From IMG/VR virus record IMGVR_UViG_3300029702_000002: a stretch of DNA of 64,000 nt, one strand, 5' to 3'. The notes beneath the pieces are model-generated. The model was not told where the DNA came from, did no database searches, and was given only the letters and a program-made list of their open reading frames with translations. The position numbers and the translations under genes were made by a program. The first letter of the stretch is position 1. Every line of letters begins with the position of its first letter. The DNA comes from a virus (Duplodnaviria > Heunggongvirae > Uroviricota > Caudoviricetes). Positions 5,102 through 62,573 of this stretch are shown piece by piece.

Positions 5102-5313
5102 ATTAACACTCCTGATTCTACTAATTGCTGTAGCAATACTTTCCCTTTATCAGTTAACTGGTAGTTGGCCGAACACCACGTTTCAGAAACGTTTGCAACC
5201 AACCCTAAACGCTCTAACTTAGCTCGCGTTTTAGGCTTCCAGTACTCAGGGAACTCCGGCCACTTACTTATTTCATGAAGCGTTTCTTTCTCCCGTTTAC
5301 TTAATACGATCAT
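5098..5313 (-). CDS. Hypothetical protein (71 aa)
   Basis: Translationally coupled to ligase stop. Confidence 0.5.
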   Translation of the reverse strand: MIVLSKREKETLHEISKWPEFPEYWKPKTRAKLERLGLVANVSETWCSANYQLTDKGKVLLQQLVESGVLI

Positions 5314-8482: not shown

Positions 8483-8714
8483 TTTGACTTCCCTTTATTT
8501 ATATTTATCGTAGGTATTAGTTAACCAAAACACGAGCAGTGTCACAATAATTCCATAACTTATTATTTCCACTAGTGATTAATACCACATCAACTTTACG
8601 GTTCATAAATTAAATTATCAAAGCTGACAGATTAACTAAATTTAAGTACCCTTTTCGCACACTTGACGCTTGCCGCGTCTAAACTGTTCATCCTATATCA
8701 ACAGAATAAAAAAC

Positions 8715-12455: not shown

Positions 12456-12498
12456 GTGCTTTCCTTTGTTTTTTAAACAAATTGTTTTCTAGTATTAG

Positions 12499-13355: not shown

Positions 13356-13410
13356 CCTGCTTCCGTATATATTTAATAAGTTACTTATTATTTATATATA
13401 CAGAAGCAGG
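13356..13410. repeat. 55-bp AT-rich near-palindrome, copy 1 (identical to 44652-44706)
   Basis: CCTGCTTCCGTATATATTTAATAAGTTACTTATTATTTATATATACAGAAGCAGG read in both places. Confidence 0.9.
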
Positions 13411-14289: not shown

Positions 14290-14341
14290 AGCTGACACTG
14301 TAGTTATGCATTGGCGCAATGTACGCGCCAATGCATGATTT

Positions 14342-14701
14342 TTAACCTTTCTTCATCAACTCTCGTTTGATTTCATCGGTACGCATCGTGACATCGGCAG
14401 CGGTGATCGCCTCATTCAATTTCACGATGTCCTCGATTTCCTGCGGTGACTTCTCTGCCAGATGGAAAATGGCTGCTCGAATCACGTCAGAACGAGTGAA
14501 CTTCTCGAAGCGAGGGATGAACTTCATCATCTCCAGCAGTTCGAAGTATTCGTCCTCCAGTGACATTGTGCGGCTTTTAATTTTCTCTTTGCCACGAGTC
14601 GGGCGTCCCTGTGGTCTGACTGGTTGGCGCAAAGGAGTTGTGTTCTTAGCCGGTGCATCAGGCTCTTTGCGCTTTGCTAGGTCACCCATTTTCATGGACA
14701 T
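14342..14701 (-). CDS. ParG-like small partition protein (basic N-terminal tail, putative ribbon-helix-helix C-terminus)
   Basis: 119-aa ORF translationally coupled (ATGA) to ParA-like gene. Confidence 0.5.
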   Translation of the reverse strand: MSMKMGDLAKRKEPDAPAKNTTPLRQPVRPQGRPTRGKEKIKSRTMSLEDEYFELLEMMKFIPRFEKFTRSDVIRAAIFHLAEKSPQEIEDIVKLNEAITAADVTMRTDEIKRELMKKG

Positions 14702-15369
14702 TATTCTTCTTCCTCCAGACTCAACAGATAATCTACAAATTCTTCAAACTCGGCTTCCGCCTTTTTGTCGCGCTCGCTACCGGTCATTTCAAAGATAGAA
14801 CGACCAGACTCTTCCGCATCATCATAGACGTTGCGGTTATATAGATTGACTGGCGCAGACTCGATTCCAAACGTCTCAACAATCTCTTTAGCCGCCAGAA
14901 TGCGAGACACTTGTGATGGCAAAGCCGGGCACTGGTTCATGACCGCGCGGACCTTCACTTTATCGTTTACATTGCGAACATTGTCGATAATAGGATCGAT
15001 GTCACGTAAAGATTTCAAATCACGACGCTTAGGACGCAGCGGGATAATGATAACGTCAGCCATCAGCATCGCTTGTCGCTGAATTTCGGAGTCGAAGCCA
15101 CCAGCATCTACCACTACAAACTCAGCTCTACCCTGAAGCGATTTTAGGTGCTTAATGATGTCATCCTGAACGTATGCAAAAGGAATCAGCTCCAGGTCTT
15201 CGTTCTGTCGACGGTCTTCACACCAGCTCGTTGTCGTGCGCTGAATATCTATATCGGTAATATAAACCTTCTTCTTCTTTTTGACTTTCAGGCAAACGGC
15301 AATTTGCTGGGCAACGGTGGATTTGCCAGGCCCGCCCTTTGTGCCGCCAACCACAAAGATCTTGGTCAT
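14701..15369 (-). CDS. ParA/MinD-family partition ATPase
   Basis: Deviant Walker A KIFVVGGTKGGPGKST at N-terminus, 222 aa. Confidence 0.85.
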   Translation of the reverse strand: MTKIFVVGGTKGGPGKSTVAQQIAVCLKVKKKKKVYITDIDIQRTTTSWCEDRRQNEDLELIPFAYVQDDIIKHLKSLQGRAEFVVVDAGGFDSEIQRQAMLMADVIIIPLRPKRRDLKSLRDIDPIIDNVRNVNDKVKVRAVMNQCPALPSQVSRILAAKEIVETFGIESAPVNLYNRNVYDDAEESGRSIFEMTGSERDKKAEAEFEEFVDYLLSLEEEE

Positions 15370-15687
15370 TGGAGAGTTCCCTTTGCGTATATAATTATCG
15401 TCTGAAACAACTTGTTTTCTTATATGTGATATAGCCTAAATGCCTACGGCTGCGGTGTAAAGGTTAAATGGTAGGTTGTGATTAACAATTGGCAAACATA
15501 GCTTGTATTTGTCTGTTGAAAAAAGTAACAATGACCTCTATATTACAAGTACGGTGATATGCCGTACACAATTTGATAATGCACACGTAATGGGCTATAG
15601 CCTTTTAAAGTAATTTTTGAGTCGAAAACTCAGTTTGAACAGAGGAGATTGATGGCCTTCCTACATCACGGCCATCAGGAGGAATAC

Positions 15688-15957
15688 ATGTCAGCACTAA
15701 AAAAGCAGCGCATCGATTTGAGATTAACCGATGACGATAAAAGCATCATCGAGGAAGCTGCCGCAATGTCTAACCAGAGCATTACTCAGTTTATGGTTAG
15801 CAGTGCATCTGAACGTGCCGTGAAAGTTATAGAGCAACACCGTAGACTAGTTCTGAATGAAGAATCCTGGAATCTGGTTATGGACGCTATAAGCAATCCT
15901 CCGGCACCGAACGACAAGCTGAAACGAGCTGCTGATCGTCTGAAAAGCATGGAGTAG
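15688..15957 (+). CDS. DUF1778/TacA-like antitoxin
   Basis: Small ORF immediately upstream of GNAT toxin; ATG 15688 preceded by CAGGAGGAA. Confidence 0.7.
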   Translation: MSALKKQRIDLRLTDDDKSIIEEAAAMSNQSITQFMVSSASERAVKVIEQHRRLVLNEESWNLVMDAISNPPAPNDKLKRAADRLKSME

Positions 15958-42645: not shown

Positions 42646-43902
42646 CTATCGAGAACCACCAAGAATAACACGGTTTTTGACTGGATACCTACGATGTACT
42701 GGATAGCCCAATGCGTCTGCACTATGCTCAATGCCACCTGTCTTATCCATATCTCGTGTTCCAGGCTTGTAGATGACTTTTTCCAGTGAATCAATCAAAT
42801 GCTTGCACTTCGGATCGATATACAACCGGATATCTCCAGATGCGGTCATCAGCATTCGGTTAACAGCATTAACACGATCCGCAATTGGCGGGTGCTTTTT
42901 CGAATAATCGACACGTAAGAATCCCTTCTCTTTGAATATGTCGACGTCAGACTCCCCGCGAGCATGTTGGCGATAAGCACCTGCCGGATCTGGAAATACC
43001 GTTATCTGTGATTTCCAGCGCCAGAAGCGTCTCTCAAGCTCATCACAAACCTCTGCCGTGTTAGAGGAAAAGAGCACCAATTCATCAATTGCCCATAGCT
43101 CACCATTTGGCTGAGGTTGCAAAATTACTGAAGACATCGGGTCAATGTTGAAGTCCTGCCCTACCCATATAGGCAACCGAGGGTTGAACTGAAGCGGTTT
43201 TACATGCACGTTACGATCGAACGGGTAGTAAACGCGCCCGGACATGTTCTCAAAGCTCGCCAGGTACTCCTGAGCGAACGATTTCGGGTCCATATCGTTC
43301 TTAGCAGCTTCAATTTCCGCCGTAGGCACAAACGGAGAATCGGCAGTTACAAACTGCCAGCTCTTCCACTGTCCCTTTCTTTGCAGCTCTACGTTCTGGC
43401 CTATAGTCCACAGTTTGTGAAATTCCGAGAAACCTTTTGGCGTACCAATGATCAGTGCACCGCCGCGTGTCGATGAAAGAGTAGGTCGTAACACCTTGTA
43501 CCAGGTGTCAGCCTTCATATCCTGAAATTCATCAAGCACTACAAAATGCAACGCTACGCCGCGCAGAGTGTCAGGCTTATCAGCACCTTTGAGGGCGATC
43601 TCCGAACCGTTCTTCAACACGATTGTCATCGTGGTGTCGTTCTTTTTCCTAACCCACTTACGAGGCAGAACTTCCTGTAGATCGTCCCACAAAATCTGGC
43701 GAGCCATCTGGTAAGTAGGAGCGACATACCAGACCCTTTGCTTTTTTTCCTTTGCCGCCGCACGAATAATAGTGGAGATCGACAACCGGGATTTTCCCCA
43801 GCGTCGACCAGCACAAACAACTTTAAATCGATGCGGAGACTGGAAGACTTTCATCTGTCCAGAATGCAGTTGCACAAGACTGAGCGAGGACGGGATTGCC
43901 AT
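42646..43902 (-). CDS. Terminase large subunit
   Basis: N-terminal Walker A VVCAGRRWGKS, ATPase + nuclease two-domain size, overlaps terS stop. Confidence 0.9.
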   Translation of the reverse strand: MAIPSSLSLVQLHSGQMKVFQSPHRFKVVCAGRRWGKSRLSISTIIRAAAKEKKQRVWYVAPTYQMARQILWDDLQEVLPRKWVRKKNDTTMTIVLKNGSEIALKGADKPDTLRGVALHFVVLDEFQDMKADTWYKVLRPTLSSTRGGALIIGTPKGFSEFHKLWTIGQNVELQRKGQWKSWQFVTADSPFVPTAEIEAAKNDMDPKSFAQEYLASFENMSGRVYYPFDRNVHVKPLQFNPRLPIWVGQDFNIDPMSSVILQPQPNGELWAIDELVLFSSNTAEVCDELERRFWRWKSQITVFPDPAGAYRQHARGESDVDIFKEKGFLRVDYSKKHPPIADRVNAVNRMLMTASGDIRLYIDPKCKHLIDSLEKVIYKPGTRDMDKTGGIEHSADALGYPVHRRYPVKNRVILGGSR

Positions 43903-44534
43903 TATTCGTCCTCCCCTTCACTTCCATCATCTGTCGCATCAAATTCGCTTAGAGCTTCTTCTTCCAACGTCTCAAGCAATTCGTCATCGATGATTTCAGG
44001 CTCGTCGTCTTCCTGACGTAATTTCGCCACCTGGGAAGGCGTAAGCTCACCAAATACCAGGTTCGGAATTTCTTCCTCGTCATTTTCCGCATGATCCATG
44101 CCCAATGCTTTGGACGAAACTTCAAAGCATTTTGCAAGGGTATTACTGGCTCTCTGTAAGCTCTTGAGAGAATCCTCAATCGCCCCTAAAGGCTTACCCT
44201 CACGTTTGGCCGTAGTGACTTCGACCATCACCATCTGCCCCAACGCATACGCCCAGCCGTCATAACGTGTACGACGTTCTTCTATCTTTTCCGCACGGGC
44301 TTTAGCGCGAAGCTCTGCGTCAGATTTAAGAGACTCACGAACCATCTTCCCAACAGAGTCCGCGCCTTTCTCTAATCCTCGCTTTTTGAAATGTCTGGAG
44401 AGTGTTTCACGACGAATGCCGTACTCTTCCTCCAGCTTTGAGAGTGTATATTCGCCTGACGTCCATTTGGCTTCAGCTTCGGCCCACTCCGCTGGTGTCA
44501 GGCGAGTTTTTACCTCGTCTTTTTCGACCGTCAT
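43902..44534 (-). CDS. Terminase small subunit
   Basis: N-terminal HTH-like region, acidic C-terminal tail, immediately upstream of terL. Confidence 0.7.
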   Translation of the reverse strand: MTVEKDEVKTRLTPAEWAEAEAKWTSGEYTLSKLEEEYGIRRETLSRHFKKRGLEKGADSVGKMVRESLKSDAELRAKARAEKIEERRTRYDGWAYALGQMVMVEVTTAKREGKPLGAIEDSLKSLQRASNTLAKCFEVSSKALGMDHAENDEEEIPNLVFGELTPSQVAKLRQEDDEPEIIDDELLETLEEEALSEFDATDDGSEGEDE

Positions 44535-44651
44535 AGATCCCTCTAAAACACACAGAGCGCGTCCATGCGCTCTAAAACAACTTGTTTACTGCATTTTCTA
44601 ACCAACTTGTTTTCTGGGTTGTTTAATTAGGTCTGGGCATGTCTTATTAAG

Positions 44652-44706
44652 CCTGCTTCCGTATATATTTAATAAGTTACTTATTATTTATATATACAGA
44701 AGCAGG
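44652..44706. repeat. 55-bp AT-rich near-palindrome, copy 2 (identical to 13356-13410), about 120 bp upstream of terS
   Basis: Exact 55/55 identity to copy 1. Confidence 0.9.
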
Positions 44707-44730
44707 TCTTTAAATAAGCTCCCAGACCGA

Positions 44731-44997
44731 TTACATCACCAGTAACTTCGCTTTGGCTCGACCTAAAGTGGTTAACCCAAGAGTTCGGCGGTGATAGCGA
44801 TTGTCACTGCGTTGGCGCGTATGCCCTTTCTCCACAAGCCCCTTTTTTATCAGAGCGCGAATTGAGAACTGGATACTTTGCTTGGTTGTCTTGTACGGCA
44901 AAACTTCAAGCAATTCGTCCAGATCAAGTAGATGACCTCGCTCATAACCGAGATTGAGCGTTTTGATGATGTCCTTTTGTTTATCGGTTAACGTCAT
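44731..44997 (-). CDS. Small putative DNA-binding protein (88 aa)
   Basis: AAGGA site; basic C-terminus; last gene of ParB/ATPase/GNAT operon. Confidence 0.45.
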   Translation of the reverse strand: MTLTDKQKDIIKTLNLGYERGHLLDLDELLEVLPYKTTKQSIQFSIRALIKKGLVEKGHTRQRSDNRYHRRTLGLTTLGRAKAKLLVM

Positions 44998-45006
44998 GGC
45001 AAATCC

Positions 45007-45897
45007 TTATGCCGGTAAAGCAATTTCTAACGGTTTATCCAAAGGTTGTTTGTCGAATGCCAGCAGTGGCAGCGTGTCAGGCAGTCGACGACCAAAGTCA
45101 GGGTTTCGATACACCCCATACAACGGAGACGTAAAGCTCAGGTTGTGAATGTCCTTGAGCAACTTCACAATGCTGGCCTCGTCCACCAGACTGTCGGCAA
45201 TGTCCTGAATCGTCGTGCCACGATTCCGCCCAGCTTTTGCCAGGGAACTGTTCTTATGGTAGTCCGCCACCAGATCACGCAGTGCACGGCGACGACGAGA
45301 CTCGCTCATTGCGAACAACTCTTTGACGATCGCCTCGTTATCACCCGGGTCGGAACGAAAATGGCGCTGGAATACACGCAGTGCACTTTCATAGCTCTTC
45401 GGTCGCTCAGGGCGGATGAACTTAAACCCTGCTTTCATGGCGAAGGGATTGTATTTGCTCATCGAGGACTGGATCTCAATGATTGGCCGGTCATGCATCC
45501 TGCTAACCAGGTTAATCATTCGATAAGAGACGCCTACGCCACGATACTGAGTATCCACAACTGAGCGACTGATCACCGCAAAGTTGTTATTCACGTACCG
45601 ACCCCAGTACTGGTTAGCCACGGTGGTATTAGTGGTTGGTTTCAACTTAGGAAACATGCGGTGGCGAGGTGCCAACAGTAGTTTCGGGTAAGCCATAACC
45701 ACGACGCCCACCAGACGGTCATCAAGTTCGCAGCGATAGTAAGTTGGCGCGAAAGGTTTGCCGTCTGTTTTGTAGTGAAGCGACTTAAGAGCGTGCCAGT
45801 CCTCTACAGTTCCCTTTGTAACAGTCATTCGCTCCAGAAAGTCCAGATGACGCGGAAACTCTTCAGGGCGGTAGCGTTTAATGATGATGTCCGTCAT
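45007..45897 (-). CDS. GNAT-like acetyltransferase-fold protein with C-terminal extension (296 aa)
   Basis: VVDTQYRGVGVSYRMI resembles GNAT motif A (Q/R-x-x-G-x-G/A); 4-nt overlap with upstream ATPase. Confidence 0.45.
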   Translation of the reverse strand: MTDIIIKRYRPEEFPRHLDFLERMTVTKGTVEDWHALKSLHYKTDGKPFAPTYYRCELDDRLVGVVVMAYPKLLLAPRHRMFPKLKPTTNTTVANQYWGRYVNNNFAVISRSVVDTQYRGVGVSYRMINLVSRMHDRPIIEIQSSMSKYNPFAMKAGFKFIRPERPKSYESALRVFQRHFRSDPGDNEAIVKELFAMSESRRRRALRDLVADYHKNSSLAKAGRNRGTTIQDIADSLVDEASIVKLLKDIHNLSFTSPLYGVYRNPDFGRRLPDTLPLLAFDKQPLDKPLEIALPA

Positions 45898-46559
45898 GAA
45901 TGGACCTCATCATGACTACCATTGTGATATTCCACCTTCACGCGTTCTTTGTAGTGCTTGGTGATCTGCATATCCGGGCGCAGCGCGTTCTTCAGGTCTT
46001 CGTGAGTCGTCGCCACCATTACCGTCGCACCAACCTTTCGCGCGGCACGCTGGAGGTTAGACGCCACAACCTGAGCGGTTACACGGTCGAGAACAGCGCC
46101 GAACTCGTCAGCAGCCCACACTTTAGCGCCTGACTCAATCAGTTTGGCAATCTTGAGACGATATTTCTGGCCGTCTGACATTTCAGAAGGCTTGCGAACA
46201 AACAGATATGCATCGTTCAGACCAGCCATAGATAACAACCCAAGCGCATCACTGGTCGTTTTGCCCAACTGATCGATGACGTTAACCTCATTATCGAAGG
46301 TAAAATCATCGATGGAGGCTACAGACAGCCCTTCATCCTTCATCTGTCGTTGCAACTCGCGCAGCACAACGGATTTGCCGGAACCGGATTGGCCGGTGAT
46401 GTACACCACATCGCCCTGCTTCACTTCCAGCTCCAGATTGTCGTAAAGCGTCCACTCTTTTTCGTCCAGGCCAAGCCCGAACGACTCAGCGATTTCCAAC
46501 GTGCGCGTGGTTTTATTTACGCGTGTCTGAAACGATATGTTGATGATGTATTTGCTCAT
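45894..46559 (-). CDS. ABC-type ATPase (single nucleotide-binding domain, 221 aa)
   Basis: Walker A GQSGSGKS, signature-like MSDGQKYR, Walker B VWAADEF, H-loop TTHE. Confidence 0.7.
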   Translation of the reverse strand: MSKYIINISFQTRVNKTTRTLEIAESFGLGLDEKEWTLYDNLELEVKQGDVVYITGQSGSGKSVVLRELQRQMKDEGLSVASIDDFTFDNEVNVIDQLGKTTSDALGLLSMAGLNDAYLFVRKPSEMSDGQKYRLKIAKLIESGAKVWAADEFGAVLDRVTAQVVASNLQRAARKVGATVMVATTHEDLKNALRPDMQITKHYKERVKVEYHNGSHDEVHS

Positions 46560-47224
46560 GCAGCCATCTCCCCGGAAGAGATCTTCTCCGCATATGCCAC
46601 AAATGCGTCTACCCCGCTTTCTCCCGTCATTTCTTCCATATGGGCAAGCAAATCACCAACAACAATGGCAGAGCCAGCAGGGAGCGTTTTAAAGCCCAAT
46701 ACGTCGACAACACGTACTTCTTCCGCTGCAACTTCACGACTGATCTCGGTGTGTTCATCCTTCTGTCGTTTAGTTTCTTCGCCAAGATCGATAACTAGCG
46801 AGTCGGTGTCCATTTCTTCTGTCATACTGCCAACGAGAACATTCAACTCACGCTCTTCAAAGCCGAAAACCTCGATATCGTCCAGAACAAGCGACTCAAG
46901 CTCTTTCTGTAGCTTAATTGCATCGTAATCAATGCTGGCAAGTCGGTTATCTTCAAGGCGCTTCGCACGAACCTCGTCATCACTGAGATCATCGCGAACA
47001 ATAACCGGTACGCGCTCAAGTCCAGCAAAAATTGCAGCCTCACGGCGGCCGTGGCCAGTAATAATTACGTCGTTCTTATCGACCGTAATTGGCTGGTCAA
47101 ATCCGCGCTTTTTAATGGCTGCGGCCAGATCTCGGATCTGCTGTTCATCATGCTTTTTGGCATTCATCTCATAGGGAATAAGATCTGCCGGGTCGCGATA
47201 TACGATTTCAAACTTTTTGGTCAT
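46556..47224 (-). CDS. ParB-like nuclease domain protein
   Basis: ParB N-terminal motif ITGHGRREAA; start at ATG 47224 overlapping upstream stop. Confidence 0.65.
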   Translation of the reverse strand: MTKKFEIVYRDPADLIPYEMNAKKHDEQQIRDLAAAIKKRGFDQPITVDKNDVIITGHGRREAAIFAGLERVPVIVRDDLSDDEVRAKRLEDNRLASIDYDAIKLQKELESLVLDDIEVFGFEERELNVLVGSMTEEMDTDSLVIDLGEETKRQKDEHTEISREVAAEEVRVVDVLGFKTLPAGSAIVVGDLLAHMEEMTGESGVDAFVAYAEKISSGEMAA

Positions 47225-47922
47225 TACATACGCTCCTTGTAGTAGTCGACCAGCCACACCAGAGCCTCACCAGCGTTCTCCATTTCATTACCGGTGTTAA
47301 TAGCCTGCTCTTTGATGATGTTTTTTATGGTTTCTGCAACACGATCTGACGCATCGAAAGTTACTTTGAAGCGCATGGTCTGATGTTCCGCACCCACACG
47401 TTCGGTTTTCTCTCGTTTGTCGGTATCGACAGGCTCATCACTACCACGAGACAACGCCTCCAGTGCTTCAAGGTCGATTGCCGCCTCTTTTGCTAAAACC
47501 ATCGAGATTTCGTCGTCATACGGGGCGATTTCAGACAGTTGATAGTCAAGTTCTGACTGAATTTCTTCAATGAAGCGTTGCAATGCGATTTGGTCGTCTT
47601 CACCGTATCGCTCGTTGTCCACCAGTGACATCTGTTTAGCTACGACATCGCTAATTTTGCCCACAGAAAGCACCGGAACCGTTGAAATTCCTTGCTCAAT
47701 AGCAGCACGCCAGCGATGTTCGCCGCCGAGGATTTCAAAAAATCCATCTTCAAGTTCACGAGCCAAAATTGGCTTAAAAAAGCCCAATTTTTCGATAGAA
47801 CCTTTCAGTTTTTCAAAATTCTGCGCACCAACCGAATTGGTGTTCCAGGTATTCGGGCGAAGGTTGGCAACATCAACCTGCAAAATCGTGATTTTTACAT
47901 CCATTTTATTGCTACAATCCAC
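47224..47922 (-). CDS. ParB-like nuclease domain protein
   Basis: ParB N-terminal motif ILGGEHRWRAA. Confidence 0.65.
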   Translation of the reverse strand: MDCSNKMDVKITILQVDVANLRPNTWNTNSVGAQNFEKLKGSIEKLGFFKPILARELEDGFFEILGGEHRWRAAIEQGISTVPVLSVGKISDVVAKQMSLVDNERYGEDDQIALQRFIEEIQSELDYQLSEIAPYDDEISMVLAKEAAIDLEALEALSRGSDEPVDTDKREKTERVGAEHQTMRFKVTFDASDRVAETIKNIIKEQAINTGNEMENAGEALVWLVDYYKERM

Positions 47923-49852: not shown

Positions 49853-50317
49853 ATGAAGTCTCCCATACTGTTCACTTTCTGTTCTAAAACTATCATGAAA
49901 TACTCGCTTCTCCCTCTACTAACGTTACCAGTGTTGATGCTTACCGCGTGCCAATCACGCCCAATATCAATCCATGACGCCAAACCAGCACCGCAGGCCA
50001 AAGTGTTCAAGTATCAAAGCGCAGCGCCAGCTACGTTGGTGGTAATGAGAGACACAGGTTTTGTAGGAGCTGGATGTGATGCTTCCATTTTCATCAACGG
50101 CGAAACTGTCGCAAAACTGGCTACAGGCGAAAAAGCGACTTTCCATTTAAATGCCGGAGAATTAATTGTGGGTGCATCTCTTGAAGGTGCAGGTTTATGT
50201 GCTCTAAACCCCGCTCGTCAAGAGCGAGAAACGACTCTGAAGAATGGAGACACAAAAGCGTTCAGGGTGTTCACCAGCAATTCTGGTGACATCGACATTC
50301 TGCCAACAACTCTGTGA
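49853..50317 (+). CDS. Lipoprotein (lipobox LTAC)
   Basis: AGGGAGA site before ATG 49853; internal ATG 49895 would give a canonical 19-aa lipoprotein signal peptide. Confidence 0.6.
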   Translation: MKSPILFTFCSKTIMKYSLLPLLTLPVLMLTACQSRPISIHDAKPAPQAKVFKYQSAAPATLVVMRDTGFVGAGCDASIFINGETVAKLATGEKATFHLNAGELIVGASLEGAGLCALNPARQERETTLKNGDTKAFRVFTSNSGDIDILPTTL

Positions 50318-50321
50318 TGAC

Positions 50322-50846
50322 ATGACAACCAAAGATATTACCTACGGTATCCAAGCTGAACTCTGGCCGCGAGATTACACTAACGTTGAAAAACTACTGA
50401 TGTTCTGGCGCAGAGAACAAATTCCTGTAAGGGTCACTCTCGAAGATGGCCAGGCGTTTTGCATGTACGTTTATGGCCTCATGCCATCTCGTAACAAAGT
50501 TGACCTTTGCCCAGCCCCTTTTGACAAAGAAAATCGTATAAGGCTCCCACTTGAACGCATTAGTACAATTGAATCAGGTGTGGTTGACAGTATCGCTCAC
50601 GATTTCAAAGGTCGACTAACAGTTCACCCTGATTATGTCGATAATCGGCCATCACGCCGCGATTTTTTTGCAATTTGCAACCAAGCCTACAAAGCAAACA
50701 AATCTATAAGGGTGTACATGGCGGATGGCCGTGAAATTGAGGGGGTGTCAGCAGGCGCAGATGCTTGTCAGGTTACACTACGTGTCGAGAACGTTAGAAA
50801 AATAGTTGTTTTGTTCGATTGGGTTGAACGAATTTTGCCTTTTTGA
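50322..50846 (+). CDS. Hypothetical cytoplasmic protein (174 aa)
   Basis: ATG 5 nt after lipoprotein stop. Confidence 0.5.
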   Translation: MTTKDITYGIQAELWPRDYTNVEKLLMFWRREQIPVRVTLEDGQAFCMYVYGLMPSRNKVDLCPAPFDKENRIRLPLERISTIESGVVDSIAHDFKGRLTVHPDYVDNRPSRRDFFAICNQAYKANKSIRVYMADGREIEGVSAGADACQVTLRVENVRKIVVLFDWVERILPF

Positions 50847-52632: not shown

Positions 52633-53069
52633 AATACTTCCACAATAACGCGCCATCAATGGCGCGTTTTTTATTGTCTTTAACTCACTCCAACAACATA
52701 AAAATAAGCACCAAAATAACGCCATAGACGCGCTTTTATATCCTTGCCAGTACATACCCATTACTTAACACATTAACGCGCTTAAAACGCGTTATATTGC
52801 GCTATAGAGTATGGTTAATCATTGGCTTTTAGTCTTGCTATGTGATCCGCGTTTATTTGTCGGTGCGGATCGGCATTTTGTTTTGTTCTGTATCCGCTCG
52901 CGTATTATGTGCGCGTGATTTTTCACATAATCACACCACTTAATCACGTATGTGATTATGCTACGAAAGAAATCTGGATGTCTCAGGTGACGAAAGTCAT
53001 CATAATTTTCCCCGCTCACCTGTCCGACAACCGCTGGTTGGATTCCACCAGCTTCCCGATGTTTTTCTA

Positions 53070-53155
53070 CATAAAGGCGAATGCAGCCGTTTCCCGAAAA
53101 AATCCTGTCCGTTCCCCGTCGGCTCATGAATACGTTCCTCGCCGTTTCTGAAAAT
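53070..53155. repeat. Iteron-like direct repeats (AGCCGTTTCCCGAAAA family), cluster A
   Basis: 3-4 imperfect copies at about 21-bp spacing; Chi-like GCTGGTGG at about 53145. Confidence 0.5.
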
Positions 53156-53211
53156 TTCCCTGCGGCAGCTGGTGGCTATAGAGAAAGGGCCGTTTCTGGC
53201 CCTCTTCTCAG

Positions 53212-53694
53212 TTACACGCCATCAAGGATGTGGATGCGGTTGCTTGCGTATACATTCAGCATAAAGTTAGCGCAAAACAGTTTCCATGTATCAACGCCAG
53301 CGGTATACGTAATGTTTTTGCATTTAATTGCATTGTTGGCGATCCGCATCCCCTGCGATACTGCTTCATCGTCGGAAAATTTGAACGACGATTGAGTTTT
53401 AATCCAGACAGAAATCTGCGTAGCGAACTCAATCAGCTTGGACTGGCAGAATCGCCCGGAGCGCACCGGAAAGACGAACGTTCCGAATCCAGAATTTACC
53501 ACATACGCTTTTTCAAATACCCGCGAGTAACGACGATTGCCAATGATGTCGCGTGCAATAATGCATTTTTCTTGTGCTGACAGTTCTACCGTCTCATTGT
53601 CGCGCCATGCACCAAGTACTCGTTTTTCAATGTCAGAGAACGTTACAGCGATATTGCCATGTGCGGGTGCGTTTACAGTAGCGATAAAATTCAT
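53212..53694 (-). CDS. Hypothetical protein (160 aa), monocistronic cassette
   Basis: Shared upstream promoter/operator element. Confidence 0.55.
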   Translation of the reverse strand: MNFIATVNAPAHGNIAVTFSDIEKRVLGAWRDNETVELSAQEKCIIARDIIGNRRYSRVFEKAYVVNSGFGTFVFPVRSGRFCQSKLIEFATQISVWIKTQSSFKFSDDEAVSQGMRIANNAIKCKNITYTAGVDTWKLFCANFMLNVYASNRIHILDGV

Positions 53695-53898
53695 GATTAA
53701 TTCCTTATCGTAAATAACAAATTGTTTTCTTGTTGGTGTTAATTATCGTTGTACGAATAAGGCGTCAAAGTGGAAAGTTACGGTAGCCGGACGGGAACAG
53801 GTGGGTTTGTCGGTTGCCTGGAGGTAAGAGGTTGGTGTTTTTAGCCTGCGGGAAACAAGATAGTCATTTAAGGCCACCAATGCTGGTGGCCTTAGCCT

Positions 53899-54180
53899 TT
53901 AGTGGAGCAGACCGATGTCGATGGTATCCCCTGAATCATCCACACGGATCATCAGCATGGCAAAGGCGTTTAGTGGATAGCTTGCGTGCCATTCAGGGAA
54001 GCGGTCATCTCGCATGAAGTCGACAATGTCGTAAACGCATCCCTCAAAGTGGAAGAATCGCGTGCTTACCTGCTCGTCATAATCCACATGATCCATTTCT
54101 TGCTGTTCTGTTTCCGGCAAGTCCAGCCATGATTCAAGAAATACATTTTGTGCTTTAGGGGTAATGGTGAAATCAGTCAT
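53899..54180 (-). CDS. Small acidic hypothetical protein (93 aa), monocistronic cassette
   Basis: ATG at 54180 with GAGGA site; conserved upstream element and 3' hairpin 53871-53895. Confidence 0.5.
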   Translation of the reverse strand: MTDFTITPKAQNVFLESWLDLPETEQQEMDHVDYDEQVSTRFFHFEGCVYDIVDFMRDDRFPEWHASYPLNAFAMLMIRVDDSGDTIDIGLLH

Positions 54181-54369
54181 GAGCATATCCTCACTGCGTA
54201 AACATGTTGTTTTCTTGTTGGTGTAATTATCGCAGTGTAGATAAGGCATAAAAGAAGTTAATACAGGCTGAATACACAAGAAAGGTTATGGAAGTTGATA
54301 GCCAGGTTTCAAACTAACCTTCGGTTATTAAAAGTCATTTAAGACCACCAATGCTGGTGGCCTTAATAA

Positions 54370-54513
54370 TTATCGCCCGATTACGCTAAGGATCTTTTCC
54401 TCAACTGATTTGTTGTTGCGACTAAACTGCCTTGCGTATCTGATGACAGAAGAGGCGTTTTGCTTTCTGACCATCTCGGCTCTTTCCTTCAGGCGTTTCT
54501 TGAAATCGCCCAT
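54370..54513 (-). CDS. Small basic protein (47 aa), coupled to upstream gene
   Basis: Short ORF starting 2 nt after stop of 54516-54890 and ending 5 nt before conserved hairpin. Confidence 0.3.
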   Translation of the reverse strand: MGDFKKRLKERAEMVRKQNASSVIRYARQFSRNNKSVEEKILSVIGR

Positions 54514-54515
54514 AT

Positions 54516-54890
54516 TTACCACCAGGCGCAGAAGGTCAGTCTGTTATTGTGAAAGTCGTGGTTCTTAATCAGATCTTCCACAAGCTCTTTCAACTGCCCC
54601 ACATCATGCCAGTAACCTTCATCGTACTCCTGACTGCCGAAGAAAAAACCTTCCCGGGTAGGCAAGTACTCTTCGCAATTACTTTCGTTTATGTGCATCA
54701 AATGAGCCTTCAGAAAACAAATGTCATTCATCGTTAATTCTAAAAGCTCACAATTTTCGACTTCACCTACGTTGCGCTCCATCCACCCAACGAGCGCATT
54801 GAACTTACGGAAGTAAGCAACCTGCTTTCTGGATGCCTCGTTATTCAGATCGTTTTTAGGCTGCGTCTCGATATAGATATCAAGTCCCAT
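54516..54890 (-). CDS. Hypothetical protein (124 aa), monocistronic cassette
   Basis: ATG 54890 with AAGGAAACC site; conserved upstream element. Confidence 0.5.
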   Translation of the reverse strand: MGLDIYIETQPKNDLNNEASRKQVAYFRKFNALVGWMERNVGEVENCELLELTMNDICFLKAHLMHINESNCEEYLPTREGFFFGSQEYDEGYWHDVGQLKELVEDLIKNHDFHNNRLTFCAWW

Positions 54891-55007
54891 GATGGTTTCC
54901 TTATTAAGTTGCTTCAGTGAAATCATTTTCACAAATCAGATAAGGCAGAAAACAAATTGTTATCGGGCATAATAAAATGGCGCGGTTTACGCGCCATTTA
55001 AAGAGGA

Positions 55008-55403
55008 TTAAGCGAATACGCTTTCAGGGATTAAGGTGTCGGCAGGAATGCCAGAGGTAATGCGCAGGCCGTACTGACCAATCCAGGTAGTGTTGGTATT
55101 CAGGCTGGAGGCGAATACGGTGTTAACCATATTCATCATGGTTTCAAACACCTCTTCATTAACCTGGCGGAAGTAGTTCTCGATTTTCAGCAGCAGCGGG
55201 TCAGTTGCATCGAGAATGGACTGGTATTGAGTCGCGTACTCGCCGCCGGAGGCATCACCTTTACGCACGATCGTACTGGCCTGGACTTCGGCACCAGTTT
55301 CGGTGTTGTACGTAACAACGGTGATTTTTGCCACATTCTTACCTTCGGCGGTTTCAGAGGCATAGTAAACATCAACTGTCAGTTTTTCGCGTTTAACGGT
55401 CAT
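55008..55403 (-). CDS. Hypothetical protein (131 aa)
   Basis: ATG 55403 with GGAGAG site. Confidence 0.5.
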   Translation of the reverse strand: MTVKREKLTVDVYYASETAEGKNVAKITVVTYNTETGAEVQASTIVRKGDASGGEYATQYQSILDATDPLLLKIENYFRQVNEEVFETMMNMVNTVFASSLNTNTTWIGQYGLRITSGIPADTLIPESVFA

Positions 55404-55529
55404 TTCACTCTCCGTAGTGTTTTGGTTATTTTTATATTCTATGATCGTAAGTATGTACTTACAATACAAAAAAGCCCCGTAAGGATGGCGGGGCTGTCGT
55501 ACGGTCGACTAATTACCACTTGCACATTA

Positions 55530-55841
55530 TCAGGCTATTGCCATCACTGATGCTCTCTGAATCTCTTGCTGGGCCACGCGGTTAACTTCCATCAAAGCCA
55601 GTTCGAGCTGATGTTCCGGCCACATTCTTTGAAATGCCACCCAGCCTTTTCCACGCTGGCGACGAACATTCATTACATAACGAGTAAAGGTGTTTTTATC
55701 GAAAGACACCGCTGTTTCACGGAACAGACGAATAGAGGTTCCATTGGCAACGATGTCCAGCAAAGTTAATTGAGCAACCAGCGCAGGCTTCTCTTTTCTC
55801 TTCTGGTCTTTGTCCAGACCAAGAACCAATGATTTTTTCAT
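55530..55841 (-). CDS. Hypothetical basic protein (103 aa)
   Basis: ATG 55841 with GGAG site; conserved upstream element at 55853-55867. Confidence 0.5.
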   Translation of the reverse strand: MKKSLVLGLDKDQKRKEKPALVAQLTLLDIVANGTSIRLFRETAVSFDKNTFTRYVMNVRRQRGKGWVAFQRMWPEHQLELALMEVNRVAQQEIQRASVMAIA

Positions 55842-55994
55842 CACAACTCCGTAAACAACTTGTTTTCTCAATGGCGTAAATAATACCAGTAAGAAAACGG
55901 CTACAAAGCATATTGATCAGGTGCATGAGCTATATGCAGGTTCTTCCCTGCGGCTATAGAGAAATTAAGCCAGCAATGCTGGCTTTGGTTGGGG

Positions 55995-56324
55995 TTACTC
56001 GAATACTTCAAGAAACTCCTGAACGTCCCAATGCTGGACGAGGTGAAGATAGACCTTAGAAATCACGTCATTTTCGCTATCGCATGTGAAGTAGTACTTC
56101 TGGCTGCGGTTGTATGTGTCCACACAAAATTCGCTCATATCCATAAAGTCAGCATCTTCACCCAGGTCGCTGATCATCAAAGCAGGTGCGTCATCACGAG
56201 TCATCAGTTCCAGCACCCATCTTGAATTGATCAGAGTGGAAGACCAACCTTCTAACTCATAAAACTGATCAAACTCTTTTTGAGTTAATTTCTTGATTTG
56301 GTTGATGTCGATATTTGTAAACAT
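55995..56324 (-). CDS. Small acidic hypothetical protein (109 aa)
   Basis: ATG 56324 with AAGGA site; conserved upstream element; 3' hairpin 55968-55986. Confidence 0.5.
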   Translation of the reverse strand: MFTNIDINQIKKLTQKEFDQFYELEGWSSTLINSRWVLELMTRDDAPALMISDLGEDADFMDMSEFCVDTYNRSQKYYFTCDSENDVISKVYLHLVQHWDVQEFLEVFE

Positions 56325-56679
56325 AAAGCAATCCTTAAACAACATGTTTTCTTGATGGTGTTATTATCGCAATAACGCACAGGCGAAAAAGGATTTTGTT
56401 CCGGTGAATGTGGTTTTGGCAGTGAGTTTTCAGGTTCAGTACCGAGTACACTTTTTACATTATTCTGATTTAGTGGCCGAAAGTGGCTGGTGGCAGAGTA
56501 ATCCTCTCCCCAAAAACCTACTGAAATCGATTGTGACCCGTTGGCTGTCTGGCACAATTACGCTGTAGCTGGGCATTCAGAGGGAATCCAGCGGTAAGCA
56601 AGTCCGCCTACGTGAGCGCCTCTCTTCTTCCCGCACATTACAGGTGGGTAGCCGCAACTCTCCCTCTCGCTATACCGGT

Positions 56680-56830
56680 ACGCCACCGTTCCTGAACCGG
56701 CATCGAGCCTTTTCCCGAAATCCACACAGGCAACTCGACCGTTTCCCTGAAAACCTCCAGCCGTTCCCCGAAGGCAACCCAGCCGTTTCTGTAGCGGGAT
56801 GCAGCCTTTTCCCTGTATGGACCGAAGGCT
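56680..56830. repeat. Iteron-like direct repeats (CCGTTTCCCTGAAAACC family), cluster B, 6 copies
   Basis: Six imperfect 20-23-bp units in tandem, same family as 53070-53155. Confidence 0.55.
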
Positions 56831-56859: not shown

Positions 56860-57780
56860 TCAGGAGTTGAATAAATACGAAAAAGGAGGCGACACCCCTC
56901 CTTCCCTCCCCACTTATACATACCTGGCTTCTTCGCTATACATGTTGTGTTTTATCTGTCTCAACCTCTCTATAGGCGTTAATGCTCACTCCTTCCAGAA
57001 TGTTCTATACGGCGACTATTTCTGTTGGTGAATTGGGTGTGTTGTTTTCTCTGTCGGTGTATGTGGTTTCGTTCGTTTTGCGGTGGTTCTTCTATGGGGT
57101 GTTCTCGTCGTTTTGGTGATTGTTCTTCTCCGTGTATGGAGTAATGGCAGGTGGGCGATTCCTTTCGTTGTTGTGTTTGAGTTGTTTGTCTGGAGTGTGT
57201 GAAAGGCTTTTGTAGTTATTCGTGTATTGGGTAATGGCGTTTCCCGTGATTGTTATGTTTCGTGTCTTTTGGGATTGAGAGAATCCTTGCGGTTACAGGC
57301 TTCGTTGGGGTTTCAGCGGTTCAGGTGTTTCTTCGCTGTTTGGGTAATGGCGTGTCGTGGGTATCGCGCGTATGAATGTTTTCGGATTGCCTGTGAAAGT
57401 TAGGTTGGTTGTCCGGTAGCCTGGGGAGAAGAGGTGGGTCTTTTCGGTAGCCTGCCATAAAGAGGTTGGTTGTTTTTGGGAATGGCATGTGTGTTATTTA
57501 GTTGTTTTGTTATGCCTGAAAATAAGTTGTTTATATGGTTGTGTAACGCAACGGGAGCGATTTTGAGCGTGTGTTTTTGTTGGTAGTGTGTTGGGTCGTC
57601 TGTGGTGAAAATTGGACGCTGTGGCGCTGTCTGCTGCGTAGCAGTTACGGGTATAAGAAGTGATGTGTGAAAACGTCAATTTTTTAGACCAAATCGGGTG
57701 AAAGCGTTGACGTTTCGTTGATCTGTTATTTAGTTGTTTTCTTATTTGTATAAACAACCATAACCTATTGATATTTAAGG
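56860..57780. repeat. ORF-free GT-skewed region with degenerate direct repeats of about 115 bp (units begin GGGTAATGGCG)
   Basis: Plus strand almost exclusively G/T-rich for about 900 bp; three GG(G/A)GTAATGGC copies and two CGGTAGCCTG copies. Confidence 0.55.
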
Positions 57781-59281: not shown

Positions 59282-61315
59282 TTACTTAACCTGGTGGCCT
59301 GGTTTAGCACCAGCATCCGGGCTTAACAGGAAGATATCTTTCCCGCCGGGGCCAGCAGCCATCACCATGCCTTCGGAGATACCGAAGCGCATTTTACGCG
59401 GAGCCAGGTTGGCCACCATAATGGTGTGACGACCAATCAGTGCCTGTGGATCTGGATAAGCGGAACGAATGCCGGAGAAGACATTACGTTTTTCGCCACC
59501 GAGATCCAGCGTCAGGCGAAGCAGTTTGTCAGAACCTTCGACAAACTCCGCGTTTTCAATCAGAGCCACGCGCAGGTCAACTTTGGCGAAGTCGTCAAAG
59601 GTGATGGTTTCCTGAATCGGATCATCTGCCAGTGGGCCAGTTACTGGCGCGGCAGCGGCTTTTACTTCCTCTTTGGATGCTTCCACCAGTGCTTCAACCT
59701 GCTTCATGTCGATGCGGTTATACAGTGCCTTGAACGGATTCACTTTATGGCCCAGCAGCGGTTGCTGGATACCATCCCAGGTCAGTTCTGTATTCAGGAA
59801 TGCTTCTGCACGTTCAGTCAGTTTCGGCAGTACCGGTTTCAGGTACGTCATCAGCACGCGGAACAGGTTAATGCCCATAGAGCAAATCGCCTGCAGATCG
59901 GCATCGCGCCCTTCCTGCTTCGCCACCACCCACGGAGCCTGTTCATCGACATAGCGGTTAGCCAGATCAGCCAGCGCCATGATTTCACGAATCGCTTTAC
60001 CAAATTCGCGGCTTTCCCATGCTTCACCAATCACTTCAGCAGCATCAGTAAAGGTTTTGTACAGTTGCGGGTCAGCCAGTTCGCTTGCCAGCACGCCGTC
60101 AAAACGCTTGTTGATAAAGCCTGCATTACGGGAGGCCAGGTTAACCACTTTGTTCACGATATCGGCATTCACGCGCTGAACGAAATCCTCCAGGTTGAGA
60201 TCGATATCATCAATGCGCGAAGAGAGTTTCGCAGTGTAGTAGTAACGCAGGCTGTCAGCGTCAAAATGATTCAGCCAGGTGCTGGCTTTAATAAAGGTGC
60301 CGCGAGACTTGGACATCTTCGCACCGTTCACCGTCACATAGCCATGAACAAACAGGTTGGTCGGCTTGCGGAAATTGCTGCCTTCCAGCATGGCAGGCCA
60401 GAACAGGCTGTGGAAGTAAACGATATCTTTACCGATGAAGTGGTACAGCTCGGCGGTGGAGTCTTTCTTCCAGTATTCGTCGAAGCTGGTAGTGTCGCCG
60501 CGTTTGTCGCACAGATTCTTGAAGGAACCCATGTAGCCAATCGGCGCGTCCAGCCAGACGTAGAAATATTTGCCCGGTGCGTTCGGAATTTCAAAACCGA
60601 AGTACGGCGCATCGCGGGAGATATCCCACTGTTGCAGGCCAGATTCAAACCACTCCTGCATTTTGTTTGCCACCTGCTCCTGCAACGCACCGCTGCGGGT
60701 CCATGCCTGCAACATTTCGCTGAAAGAAGGCAGATCAAAGAAGAAGTGTTCGGAATCACGCATTACCGGCGTAGCACCAGAAACTACCGATTTCGGCTCG
60801 ATCAGTTCAGTCGGGCTGTAAGTAGCGCCGCAGACTTCACAGTTATCGCCGTATTGATCCGGTGCTTTACATTTCGGGCAGGTGCCTTTCACAAAACGGT
60901 CCGGCAGGAACATGCCTTTTTCCGGATCGTACAGCTGAGAGATGGTGCGGTTTTTAATAAAACCGTTCTCTTTCAGGCGAGTATAGATAAGCTCGGACAA
61001 CTGACGGTTCTCTTCGCTGTGCGTCGAGTGATAGTTGTCATAGCTGATGTTAAAGCCTGCAAAATCAGTCTGGTGTTCCTGACTCATTTCGCCAATCATC
61101 TGTTCCGGTGTGATACCAAGCTGCTGTGCTTTCAGCATGATCGGTGTGCCGTGGGCATCGTCGGCACAGATGAAATTAACCTCGTGGCCGCGCATTCGCT
61201 GGTAACGAACCCAGACATCAGCCTGGATGTGCTCCAGCATATGGCCGAGGTGGATTGAGCCGTTAGCGTACGGCAGCGCGCACGTCACCAGAATTTTCTT
61301 CGCGACTTGGGTCAT
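59282..61315 (-). CDS. metG: Methionine--tRNA ligase
   Basis: Translation from [25 protein letters not shown] (HIGH motif), KMSKS motif, C-terminal ...AKPGHQVK; start placed at internal Met 44 of the 720-aa ORF to give the 677-aa enterobacterial MetG. Confidence 0.95.
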
Positions 61316-61472
61316 AGTAGGCATTACTTCTTTGTAGTGAAAAGGGGCTTGATAGTAACAAAATGGCCTTATGTCTGCCATGTGATAACAGCATTTCTCA
61401 TAAATGATTAAATGTCGTAGCTGGAGTACACTACAAGGCGACAATTGCGCAAATTAAAATAAAGGAGACGGG

Positions 61473-62573
61473 ATGAGCGAGTCCAAATCGCCGGATGCCC
61501 TGAGAGCAATGGTAGCCGGTACGCTGGCTAATTTTCAGCACCCAACCCTGAAACACAACCTGACTACGCTTAAAGCGTTACACCATGTTGCGTTGATGGA
61601 TGACACACTGCATGTCGAACTAATCATGCCTTTCGTGTGGAATAAGCCTTTTGAAGACCTGAAAGAGCAATGTAGTGGTGATCTGCTCCGTATCACTAGC
61701 GCAAAGGCTATTGACTGGAAGCTGTCGTACAACATTGCCACGCTTAAGCGCGTCAAAAACCAACCAGGCATTAATGGCGTGAAGAACATCATTGCGGTCA
61801 GCTCCGGTAAAGGCGGCGTGGGTAAATCCTCCACGGCGGTAAACCTGGCGCTGGCGCTGGCGGCTGAAGGTGCGAAAGTTGGTATTCTGGATGCCGATAT
61901 CTACGGGCCATCAATTCCAACCATGCTGGGCGCGGAAAACCAACGTCCAACCTCACCGGACGGTACTCACATGGCACCTATCATGTCTCATGGCCTGGCA
62001 ACCAATTCAATTGGCTATCTGGTCACCGACGACAATGCAATGGTGTGGCGTGGACCGATGGCCAGCAAGGCGCTGATGCAGATGTTGCAGGAAACACTGT
62101 GGCCTGATCTGGACTATCTCGTTCTCGATATGCCGCCGGGCACTGGTGATATTCAGTTGACGCTGGCGCAGAACATTCCTGTAACTGGTGCGGTTGTGGT
62201 AACTACGCCGCAAGACATCGCGCTGATCGATGCGAAGAAAGGCATTGTGATGTTCGAAAAAGTCGAAGTGCCGGTACTGGGTATCGTCGAAAACATGAGT
62301 GTGCATATTTGCAGTAACTGCGGTCATCACGAGCCAATTTTTGGCACCGGTGGCGCACAGAAACTGGCCGAGAAATACAACACGCAGTTGTTAGGCCAAA
62401 TGCCACTTCATATCTCTCTTCGTGAAGATCTGGATAACGGAACACCAACCGTTATTAGTCGTCCAGATAGCGAATTTACGGCTATTTATCGTGACCTCGC
62501 AGATCGCGTTGCTGCCCAAATGTATTGGCAAGGTGAAGTAATACCTGGCGAAATCGCATTCCGCGCAGTGTGA
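61473..62573 (+). CDS. apbC: Fe-S cluster carrier ATPase ApbC/Mrp
   Basis: AVSSGKGGVGKSSTAVNLALALA Walker A and CxxC motif; near-identical to enterobacterial Mrp by recall; divergent from metG as in E. coli. Confidence 0.95.
   Translation: MSESKSPDALRAMVAGTLANFQHPTLKHNLTTLKALHHVALMDDTLHVELIMPFVWNKPFEDLKEQCSGDLLRITSAKAIDWKLSYNIATLKRVKNQPGINGVKNIIAVSSGKGGVGKSSTAVNLALALAAEGAKVGILDADIYGPSIPTMLGAENQRPTSPDGTHMAPIMSHGLATNSIGYLVTDDNAMVWRGPMASKALMQMLQETLWPDLDYLVLDMPPGTGDIQLTLAQNIPVTGAVVVTTPQDIALIDAKKGIVMFEKVEVPVLGIVENMSVHICSNCGHHEPIFGTGGAQKLAEKYNTQLLGQMPLHISLREDLDNGTPTVISRPDSEFTAIYRDLADRVAAQMYWQGEVIPGEIAFRAV

Follow-up and report, generated by a model that had tools for sequence, protein, structure and literature searches.

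In phages T5 and SPO1, the terminal redundancies of the virion DNA hold pre-early or host-takeover genes, laid out with promoter-equipped small genes. Among plasmids, pB171 has a split centromere, and the phage-plasmid N15 has dispersed centromeres. For Rhizobium phage B1VFA, direct terminal repeats of 3,605 bp at fixed genome ends were reported (PMC12509600), and centromeres of type Ib partition systems are located upstream of the operon, where they double as its operator (PMC5016525). The locus described here was found in IMG/VR virus record IMGVR_UViG_3300029702_000002 (Caudoviricetes), of which the whole stretch of 64,000 nucleotides that was analysed is called the window in the following. 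Two short arrays of direct repeats in the window, termed array A and array B, are each accompanied by partner boxes and enclose a block of small genes. The 5 kb around the arrays are 100% identical to E. coli plasmid pRHB14-C22_3 (CP057798.1), 97.6% identical to the phage-plasmid Cyrano/pLF82, and show recognisable kinship with Salmonella phage SSU5, pHCM2, and Klebsiella SSU5-like elements; as judged from sequence, the window belongs to an E. coli phage-plasmid of the SSU5/pHCM2/Cyrano type, the whole element being 109 kb in length. Cyrano itself is a plasmid prophage of about 5.5 copies that is induced by ciprofloxacin (PMC9928086). We tentatively place first the reading that the array and box modules are recognition modules at the boundaries of a direct terminal repeat of about 3.6 kb in the virion DNA; a remote partition centromere is a close rival, ranked just below and almost as likely, and both readings could hold at once.

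Clinical Enterobacterales frequently harbour SSU5-type phage-plasmids, and resistance genes are carried within this family. The function of the two sites, each of 100–150 bp, would reveal a route of inheritance or packaging and would provide a handle for curing or blocking these elements.

Two bipartite modules in direct register

A repeat family in two clusters had been proposed from the letters of the window, and direct reading bore this out, with the core GCCGTTTCCC(T)GAAA occurring 3–4 times in array A and six times in array B, every copy in both arrays being on the + strand. Array A (53083..53175, + strand) is composed of three clear units with cores at 53086 (GCCGTTTCCC), 53108 (TCCGTTCCCC), and 53141 (GCCGTTTCTG); a fourth, degenerate unit comes next (53151-53167, AAAATTTCCCTGCGGCA) and runs into a Chi site (GCTGGTGG, 53168-53175). 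A further core-like sequence at 53189, located inside a terminator hairpin (GGGCCGTTTCTGGCCC), is probably not an array member. Array B (56682..56820, + strand) comprises six units with cores at 56685, 56707, 56738, 56760, 56782, and 56804. Cores are spaced by 22 and 33 bp in array A and by 22, 31, 22, 22, and 22 bp in array B, which corrects the periodicity of about 21 bp initially given to 22 bp, and all core-to-core gaps are near a whole number of helical turns.

Allowing up to two mismatches, the core 10-mer had 70 matches compared with 45 ± 6 in shuffled sequences. A 17-nt matrix, built from copies in other genomes only and applied with a threshold of at least 11 bits, yielded 14 sites against a mean of 4.1 expected, and 8 of these 14 fell into the two array clusters (five sites within 150 bp and three within 60 bp); in 200 Markov shuffles, the largest same-strand cluster held two sites versus the five observed. 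No further array cluster was found when the remaining 45 kb of the identical plasmid CP057798.1 were scanned with the matrix, and the arrays are the sole multi-copy repeat arrays of the element apart from its RepA iterons. An RNA element was rejected, as an Rfam search of the arrays gave no match and neither array showed an excess of RNA folding on either strand (z −1.3 to +0.7). The arrays are supported, on sequence grounds, as phased, conserved direct repeats of predicted protein-binding type.

Absence of the repeats from related elements had been named, together with a lack of specific binding, as refuting the sequence-only reading; they are present in relatives of several genera. In SSU5, pHCM2, and elements of Klebsiella, Citrobacter, Enterobacter, and Cronobacter, their syntenic position, orientation, and spacing pattern all match those in the window. 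Array A is kept in eight relatives as well as in pMT1, and the distance between the arrays ranges from 3.05 to 4.04 kb in ten relatives, gene turnover notwithstanding. In a phylogenetic footprint of seven lineages, with a background identity of about 70%, identity to the window was 0.91 (array A) and 0.83 (array B) for the core 10-mers, 0.64 and 0.51 for the spacers, and 0.61 and 0.53 for the flanks; as judged by this pattern of conservation, the arrays are under selection. The motif is still present in divergent relatives with proteins of 30–75% identity, namely in K. oxytoca pCAV1099-111 with 3 + 1 array copies and in Moellerella pW18-2-b with 2 + 4 copies and an unchanged core GCCGTTTCCCGAAAC. 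Y. pestis pMT1 has an intact array A and has lost array B through a deletion beside IS1541; this insertion element (8328-8786 of the pMT1 locus) marks the point where, besides array B, the early-gene block, the non-coding region, and genes further downstream have been deleted. For the distant relatives nickie and B1VFA, the search for matching arrays returned nothing convincing. The array B region was detected in 711 PLSDB plasmid records and is annotated in none of them, and no paper on these repeats was found in the literature; the arrays are thus an unannotated pair of sites in a medically widespread phage-plasmid family, whose array carriers (>700 PLSDB plasmids) include pHCM2, pKPHS1-type Klebsiella plasmids, and, in part, pMT1.

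To the right of each array lies a pair of partner boxes. Box pair A (53777..53842, + strand), a tandem of GGTAGCCTG-N7-AAGAGGTGGG-type boxes, is separated from array A by about 725 bp and is located directly upstream, in minus-strand sense, of the promoter of a gene for a protein of 160 amino acids (aa). The same tandem boxes form box pair B (57410..57476, + strand), about 680 bp right of array B. The two box pairs are 78% identical over 64 nt (E-value 2e-9), the two arrays resemble each other at an E-value of 1e-4, and the module of array plus boxes is present twice, in direct orientation and in register, with start offsets of 3652 bp from array A to array B and of 3603 bp between the box pairs. 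Only these end elements are alike; the interiors of the modules are unrelated, with the 160-aa gene in module A and a GT-rich non-coding stretch in module B. Because the pairing of array and boxes at about 0.7 kb recurs at the same distance in six genera (SSU5, pHCM2, and the Klebsiella, Citrobacter, Enterobacter, and Cronobacter elements), the locus was taken to consist of two bipartite modules in direct register.

The two modules, conserved and in register, enclose a block of promoter-equipped small genes (53212..56324, minus strand), i.e., six to seven genes of unknown function with products of 160, 93, 50, 124, 131, 103, and 109 aa. Most of them have their own consensus sigma70 promoter (TTGACG-N17-GATAAT), a leader motif (GAAAACAANTTGTTTTC), and a hairpin terminator. 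The terminator of the 160-aa gene unit (53175..53205, minus strand) is kept in relatives as GGGGCGTTTCCAGCCCC, and array A starts about 15 nt past it in minus-strand sense. Array B, in the same sense, starts about 50 nt past a terminator-like hairpin (56878..56908, minus strand), which ends the non-coding stretch and is not clearly kept in other genera. This stretch of 0.8 kb (56900..57750, no strand assigned) extends from array B to box pair B and past the boxes and is of extreme strand asymmetry, with a GC skew of +0.43 to +0.57 and an AT skew of −0.45 to −0.67 on the + strand; its composition, not its sequence, is kept in SSU5, Klebsiella, pCAV1099-111, and Moellerella elements. The + strand being G+T-rich, a minus-strand transcript would be C+A-rich and resemble Rho-loading sequences, and a promoter-like TTGACG-N17-TTATAC is located near 57680 on the minus strand. 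Two open reading frames (ORFs) annotated in this stretch in Cyrano are probably spurious.

The leader motif GAAAACAANTTGTTTTC is a near-palindrome that occurs 14 times in the window compared with 0.7 expected, at 12473, 15403, 44573, 44598, 49560, 50797, and 53713 as well as at 54198, 54948, 55851, 56335, 57518, 59132, and 59183. It is located 10–40 nt upstream of minus-strand start codons, i.e., those of the helicase, parA, the small terminase, and each small early gene, and usually follows directly after a consensus sigma70 promoter. K. oxytoca pCAV1099-111 has nine occurrences versus 0.35 expected, and the syntenic Moellerella region has none; a global repressor specific to the lineage likely uses the motif as its operator.

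Chi sites are concentrated in the same block. A reverse-oriented Chi (CCACCAGC, 53045..53052, + strand) is located 34 bp left of array A, and forward Chi sites (GCTGGTGG) at 53168, 53882, 54353, and 56486 amount to four in 3.3 kb compared with about 0.05 expected. The reverse site at 53045 and the forward sites are in active orientation toward RecBCD entering from outside the block, and Chi sites bounding the block in this manner would stop RecBCD from either outer side. The Chi site beside array A is kept across genera and is mutated in pMT1, as is the reverse Chi on the other side. Two of the forward sites are embedded in hairpin terminators (GGCCACCAATGCTGGTGGCC). On the scale of the entire plasmid, array A is roughly the point at which Chi polarity switches (9:2 versus 3:8); GC skew does not switch there.

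Proposed terminal repeat boundaries or a possible remote centromere

In the reading placed first, the region would be present once in the plasmid state. During packaging from concatemers, the phased repeats at each of the two boundaries would serve as the assembly site of a terminase complex of small and large terminase subunits, possibly together with the adjacent proteins containing a ParB nuclease domain, and this complex would cleave the DNA at fixed positions. Both ends of each virion DNA would then contain the early-gene block, an arrangement known from T5 and SPO1. After injection, the genes of the block would be the first to be expressed, owing to their host-type promoters, and the Chi sites just inside the boundaries would blunt RecBCD attack on the injected ends. 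We infer from the layout that the boundaries are virion ends, and likewise which protein would bind there. If this holds, the 3.6-kb block would comprise the first genes delivered and would be a likely reservoir of host-takeover or anti-defence functions.

Duplicated recognition modules in direct orientation would be required for fixed-end packaging, and related recognition-type sequences were found in direct orientation at both proposed boundaries (the array and box module of six genera). The TTGACG-N17-GATAAT sequences upstream of the small genes would fit genes driven by host RNA polymerase inside the proposed repeat. The large terminase (42646-43902, minus strand) aligned with those of T5 and many T5-like phages at 25% identity over 91% of its length (E-value 6e-19). 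Together with the small terminase (43902-44534), two ATPase/acetyltransferase-like genes (45007-46559), and two genes for proteins with a ParB N-domain (46556-47922), all on the minus strand, it forms a packaging-side module (42646..47922, minus strand), whose products are one of two candidate binders of the arrays. B1VFA is a distant relative that has the same arrangement of a helicase gene followed by two ParB-like genes, with a full-length ParB-like homologue of 37% identity, and Pseudomonas phage nickie has the full run from helicase over ParB-like proteins and ABC ATPases to terminase.

The four-gene module adjoining the terminase genes (45007-47922, minus strand) encodes the two proteins with a ParB N-domain, an ABC-type ATPase, and a 296-aa protein, the latter being annotated as ATPase/acetyltransferase-like in other records. 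As this module is kept in siphophages of about 106–122 kb of Rhizobium, Pseudomonas, Stenotrophomonas, and Xanthomonas, it was assigned a phage-core, not a plasmid, function.

Several points weigh against a terminal repeat. The large terminase gave similar scores to Jersey- and HK578-like phages with genomes of 42–45 kb. Neither a paper nor data on the virion ends of SSU5-type elements were found in the literature, and a phage-plasmid induction paper searched with packaging terms (PMC9600943) reported no termini; deposited records of the SSU5 type are arbitrarily linearised. The records of nickie and B1VFA are not opened at demonstrable termini, and the position of the B1VFA terminal repeat could not be located in its arbitrarily opened record, which has no clear matching arrays, so that the agreement in repeat length with B1VFA may be a coincidence. 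In pCAV1099-111 and Moellerella, the two most divergent relatives, only the arrays were matched by pattern and not the boxes. The arrays are, furthermore, 8.5–12 kb away from the small terminase gene.

Part of the same evidence can be read as a centromere located far from its operon, a possibility that we rate only slightly below the terminal repeat. The arrays would be parC/parH-type sites of a type Ib-like system of ParA and a ParG-like protein encoded 38 kb away; ribbon-helix-helix (RHH) dimers would coat the repeats, and the two coated arrays would recruit ParA-ATP and thereby segregate a prophage of about five copies. The operon in question (14342..15369, minus strand) provides the other candidate binder. 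Its ParA (14701-15369, minus strand, 222 aa) has Pfam matches to MipZ, AAA_31, CbiA, and ParA, and is a small Walker-type protein without an N-terminal DNA-binding domain, as is typical of type Ib. The ParG-like protein (14342-14701, minus strand, 119 aa) has a disordered, Arg-rich tail followed by an RHH-type signature: residues 1–40 are disordered, with a conserved MGDLAKR start and invariant R25, R33, and R36, and in the structural model an extended segment (41–47) would be followed by helices at 48–60 and 70–84 with the signature RSDVIRAA. The segments IKSRTxSxEDE and RSDVxRAA stay unchanged even in Moellerella, where overall identity falls to 28%, and IKSRTxS is predicted from sequence to be the DNA-reading strand and RSDVxRAA the start of helix B of an RHH fold. 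Searches for this fold against Pfam, PDB sequences, and Foldseek gave no match, and the model had a predicted template modelling score (pTM) of 0.22.

The sequence-only reading had remarked that no centromere adjoins the ParA/ParG-like pair, and indeed no repeat array was found within 14250-15720; nor do any arrays adjoin the par operon in pCAV1099-111 and Moellerella, which means that three divergent family members have a par operon devoid of arrays of its own. In an element with no other multi-copy arrays except the RepA iterons, this favours the arrays as the missing site. The ParG-like protein, moreover, has a predicted tail-plus-RHH layout, with predicted DNA-reading residues that are invariant where the motif is invariant, and the core GCCGTTTCCCGAAAC is unchanged in Moellerella, whereas GAAAACAANTTGTTTTC is not kept there. 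A split centromere is known from R1 parC (PMC5016525), and a copy number of about 5.5 implies a need for active partition (PMC9928086). The genus distributions of array B (711 plasmid records) and the ParG-like gene (797 records) are near-identical; such overlap carries no information, as the core genes of this family all occur together, and phage record MK422451.1 keeps both arrays without the ParG-like gene. The location, in addition, breaks the layout that defines type Ib systems (PMC5016525), and the par promoter has one GAAAACAANTTGTTTC palindrome and no copy of the array motif. For RHH sites, a 22-bp unit whose core spans about 13 bp is large, the fold lacks support from Pfam, PDB, Foldseek, and the pTM of the model, and a centromere leaves the partner boxes and the bracketing of early genes unexplained. 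A ParG-like homologue in a 252-kb IncF plasmid was set aside as uninformative, being a truncated remnant beside a fragment of the non-coding region.

A dual role would combine both proposals: the ParG-like RHH protein would coat the arrays, which would act as centromere and as a clamp silencing the takeover genes, and after induction the arrays and boxes would set the terminase cuts. We regard this as the least probable of the explanations considered. If true, one element would couple segregation, early-gene silencing, and the formation of virion ends in a family that includes S. Typhi pHCM2 and Y. pestis pMT1.

Possible roles in replication and silencing, and other features of the element

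That the arrays are iterons of a replication initiator, as the sequence-only reading had suggested, did not hold for the plasmid initiator, RepA (CYRAN_63), which is encoded outside the window. At least 14 CTCTCTATAGTGGATA-type iterons with 21-bp spacing are located around Cyrano repA, the core GCCGTTTCCC is absent from the Cyrano repA region, and the Cyrano repA primers had no match in the window. Relatives with the same arrays were typed via MOB-suite as rep_cluster_488, IncFIB, rep_cluster_763, and rep_cluster_711, with one untyped. RepA iterons were ruled out, as their sequence and location differ from those of the arrays and the replicon type varies with the arrays staying in place.

An origin of the lytic phase is a different proposal, which we consider very unlikely: a phage initiator bound to the arrays would bring in the DnaB-like helicase, primase, and Pol III alpha that the element itself encodes, and there would be two origins, like oriL and oriR of SPP1. 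A 22-bp period of direct repeats is classic for iterons, a conserved non-coding region of 1.5 kb directly adjoins array B, and the switch of Chi polarity at array A would fit as well. Viral contigs were scanned for the pattern GCCGTTTCC-N13-GCCGTTTCC, which yielded 100 loci, 36 of them unrelated to the window; all except two of these 36 are origins inside the O-like gene of lambdoid prophages (34 loci), where the same 9-mer recurs with the same period, together with a DnaA box and AT-rich 13-mers, in an iteron of the form ATTCGGC-N6-GCCGTTTCC. The lambdoid iterons are longer, palindrome-based units. Since the element encodes no homologue of the lambdoid O-like initiator, the shared 9-mer was treated as a coincidence and homology to the lambdoid origins was rejected. 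The GC content over the arrays is 0.52–0.59 with no adjoining AT-rich unwinding element; a lone DnaA-box-like sequence (AAATCCACA, 7/9 match) in the 31-bp gap is not kept in relatives; and an origin signal at the arrays based on skew was rejected, as the cumulative GC skew turns at the RepA region only. The protein encoded upstream of the helicase is all-alpha, and any likeness to T4 gp59 is weak at best. Owing to the lacking O-like homologue, the lacking AT-rich element, the skew turn at repA only, and this weak likeness to gp59, a lytic origin of the classical iteron type is not favoured.

The O-like replication gene of the lambdoid prophages (loci L018-L112 of the scan, e.g., L052 at 4749-5777) encodes a protein of 342 aa with no Pfam match and holds its own origin, consisting of a DnaA box, three AAGATCTGT 13-mer-like repeats, and 22-bp iterons; these ATTCGGC-N6-GCCGTTTCC iterons encode a PNGNGTNAE repeat.

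Transcriptional silencing is held to be about as improbable as a lytic origin. Here, the arrays would be operator or insulator arrays from which a phage protein or a conserved host protein loops or spreads over 3.6 kb and quiets the promoters in between. The arrays precisely flank the block of consensus promoters, and the motif is invariant across hosts in which most proteins of the element are at 30–60% identity, as would be the case for a highly conserved binder. Against this, every promoter already has its own operator-like palindrome, the repeats are direct and asymmetric, and no candidate regulator was identified. The ParB-like proteins have no detectable helix-turn-helix (HTH). Of the neighbouring proteins, the FljA-like and the 160-aa one show poor conservation or went undetected in those Moellerella loci that were examined. 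The half-site GTTTCCC presumably resembles ParB/Noc-type half-sites, a likeness that was used as a lead and not as a test.

The ParB-like proteins had also been named as proteins to assay for binding. They turned out to be part of the conserved packaging-side module of the phage, with a ParB N-domain, the motif GEHRWRAA of the CTP-binding type GxxRxxA, and acidic C-terminal halves; an HTH_ParB domain was not detected in them. A ParB-parS system was rejected, given the undetected HTH and repeats that are direct and asymmetric rather than palindromic as in parS. An acidic ORF of 80 aa beside array B in pHCM2 and Enterobacter was dismissed as binder, as it is absent here, and so were the 160-aa, 216-aa, and FljA-like proteins, which are at 33–49% identity or undetected in the Moellerella loci examined, where the motif is invariant. 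It is unlikely, if less so than either a lytic origin or silencing, that an explanation outside those considered applies.

The genes of the window are arranged in the order integrase, ligase, primase, DnaB-like helicase, ParA/ParG-like pair, lysis, tail, head, and terminase, followed by the two genes with a ParB N-domain, a UvsW-like helicase, the FljA-like regulator, and the array region. The FljA-like gene (50244-50846) is a full-length match to FljA of the phase-1 flagellin repressor family (PF03614, E-value 5e-83); its homologue in pCAV1099-111 has 39% identity, and none was detected in the Moellerella loci examined. Two host-like genes are unusual cargo for a phage-plasmid, i.e., metG for methionyl-tRNA synthetase (listed at 59282-61444, minus strand) and a gene for an ApbC/MinD-like ATPase (61473-62573, + strand). 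A 17-bp inverted repeat (CCTGCTTCCGTATATAT / ATATATACAGAAGCAGG) around an AT-rich centre (13356-13410) is intergenic, upstream of the operon of a 249-aa protein, helicase, and primase, and could be a regulatory site or an origin-like element.

Comparison with known systems

The terminal repeats of T5 (about 10 kb) and SPO1 (about 13 kb) resemble the locus in that small genes with host promoters are located between two sites in direct orientation. Unlike T5 and SPO1, the element is a temperate plasmid prophage, its block is much shorter, and the terminal repeat is proposed from sequence alone; phased 22-bp boundary arrays are not a described feature of those phages. Iterons of RepA-type origins (P1, F, the RepFIB-like origin of pHCM2) share with the arrays a period of 21–22 bp, the direct orientation, and the occurrence in several clusters, but the arrays have no rep gene, DnaA box, or AT-rich element adjoining them.

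Among centromeres, TP228 parH, pB171 parC1/parC2, R1 parC, and pSK41 parC are phased direct repeats bound by RHH proteins and sometimes split in two, and the element shares with type Ib and type II systems a small ParA and a partner of predicted tail-plus-RHH-like layout. Sites of those systems adjoin the par operon as its operator, whereas here 38 kb separate the arrays from the operon, the par promoter has no such array, and the unit, at 22 bp, exceeds that of most type Ib and type II centromeres. N15 is likewise a phage-plasmid with centromere sites far from the partition operon and within phage gene regions; its sopC-like sites are single palindromes for the HTH-type SopB (type Ia) and not arrays of direct repeats.

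Known terminase sites are located within a few hundred bp of one cleavage site, usually beside the small terminase gene, in contrast to the two arrays, which are separated by 3.6 kb and located over 8 kb away from the small terminase gene. In their format, the R sites of lambda cosB, the pacL/pacR boxes of SPP1, and the pac hexamers of P1 are like the arrays, consisting of three to seven phased short direct repeats on which a packaging complex is assembled, and T7 has arrays of short repeats on both sides of its terminal repeat, as in the layout proposed here.

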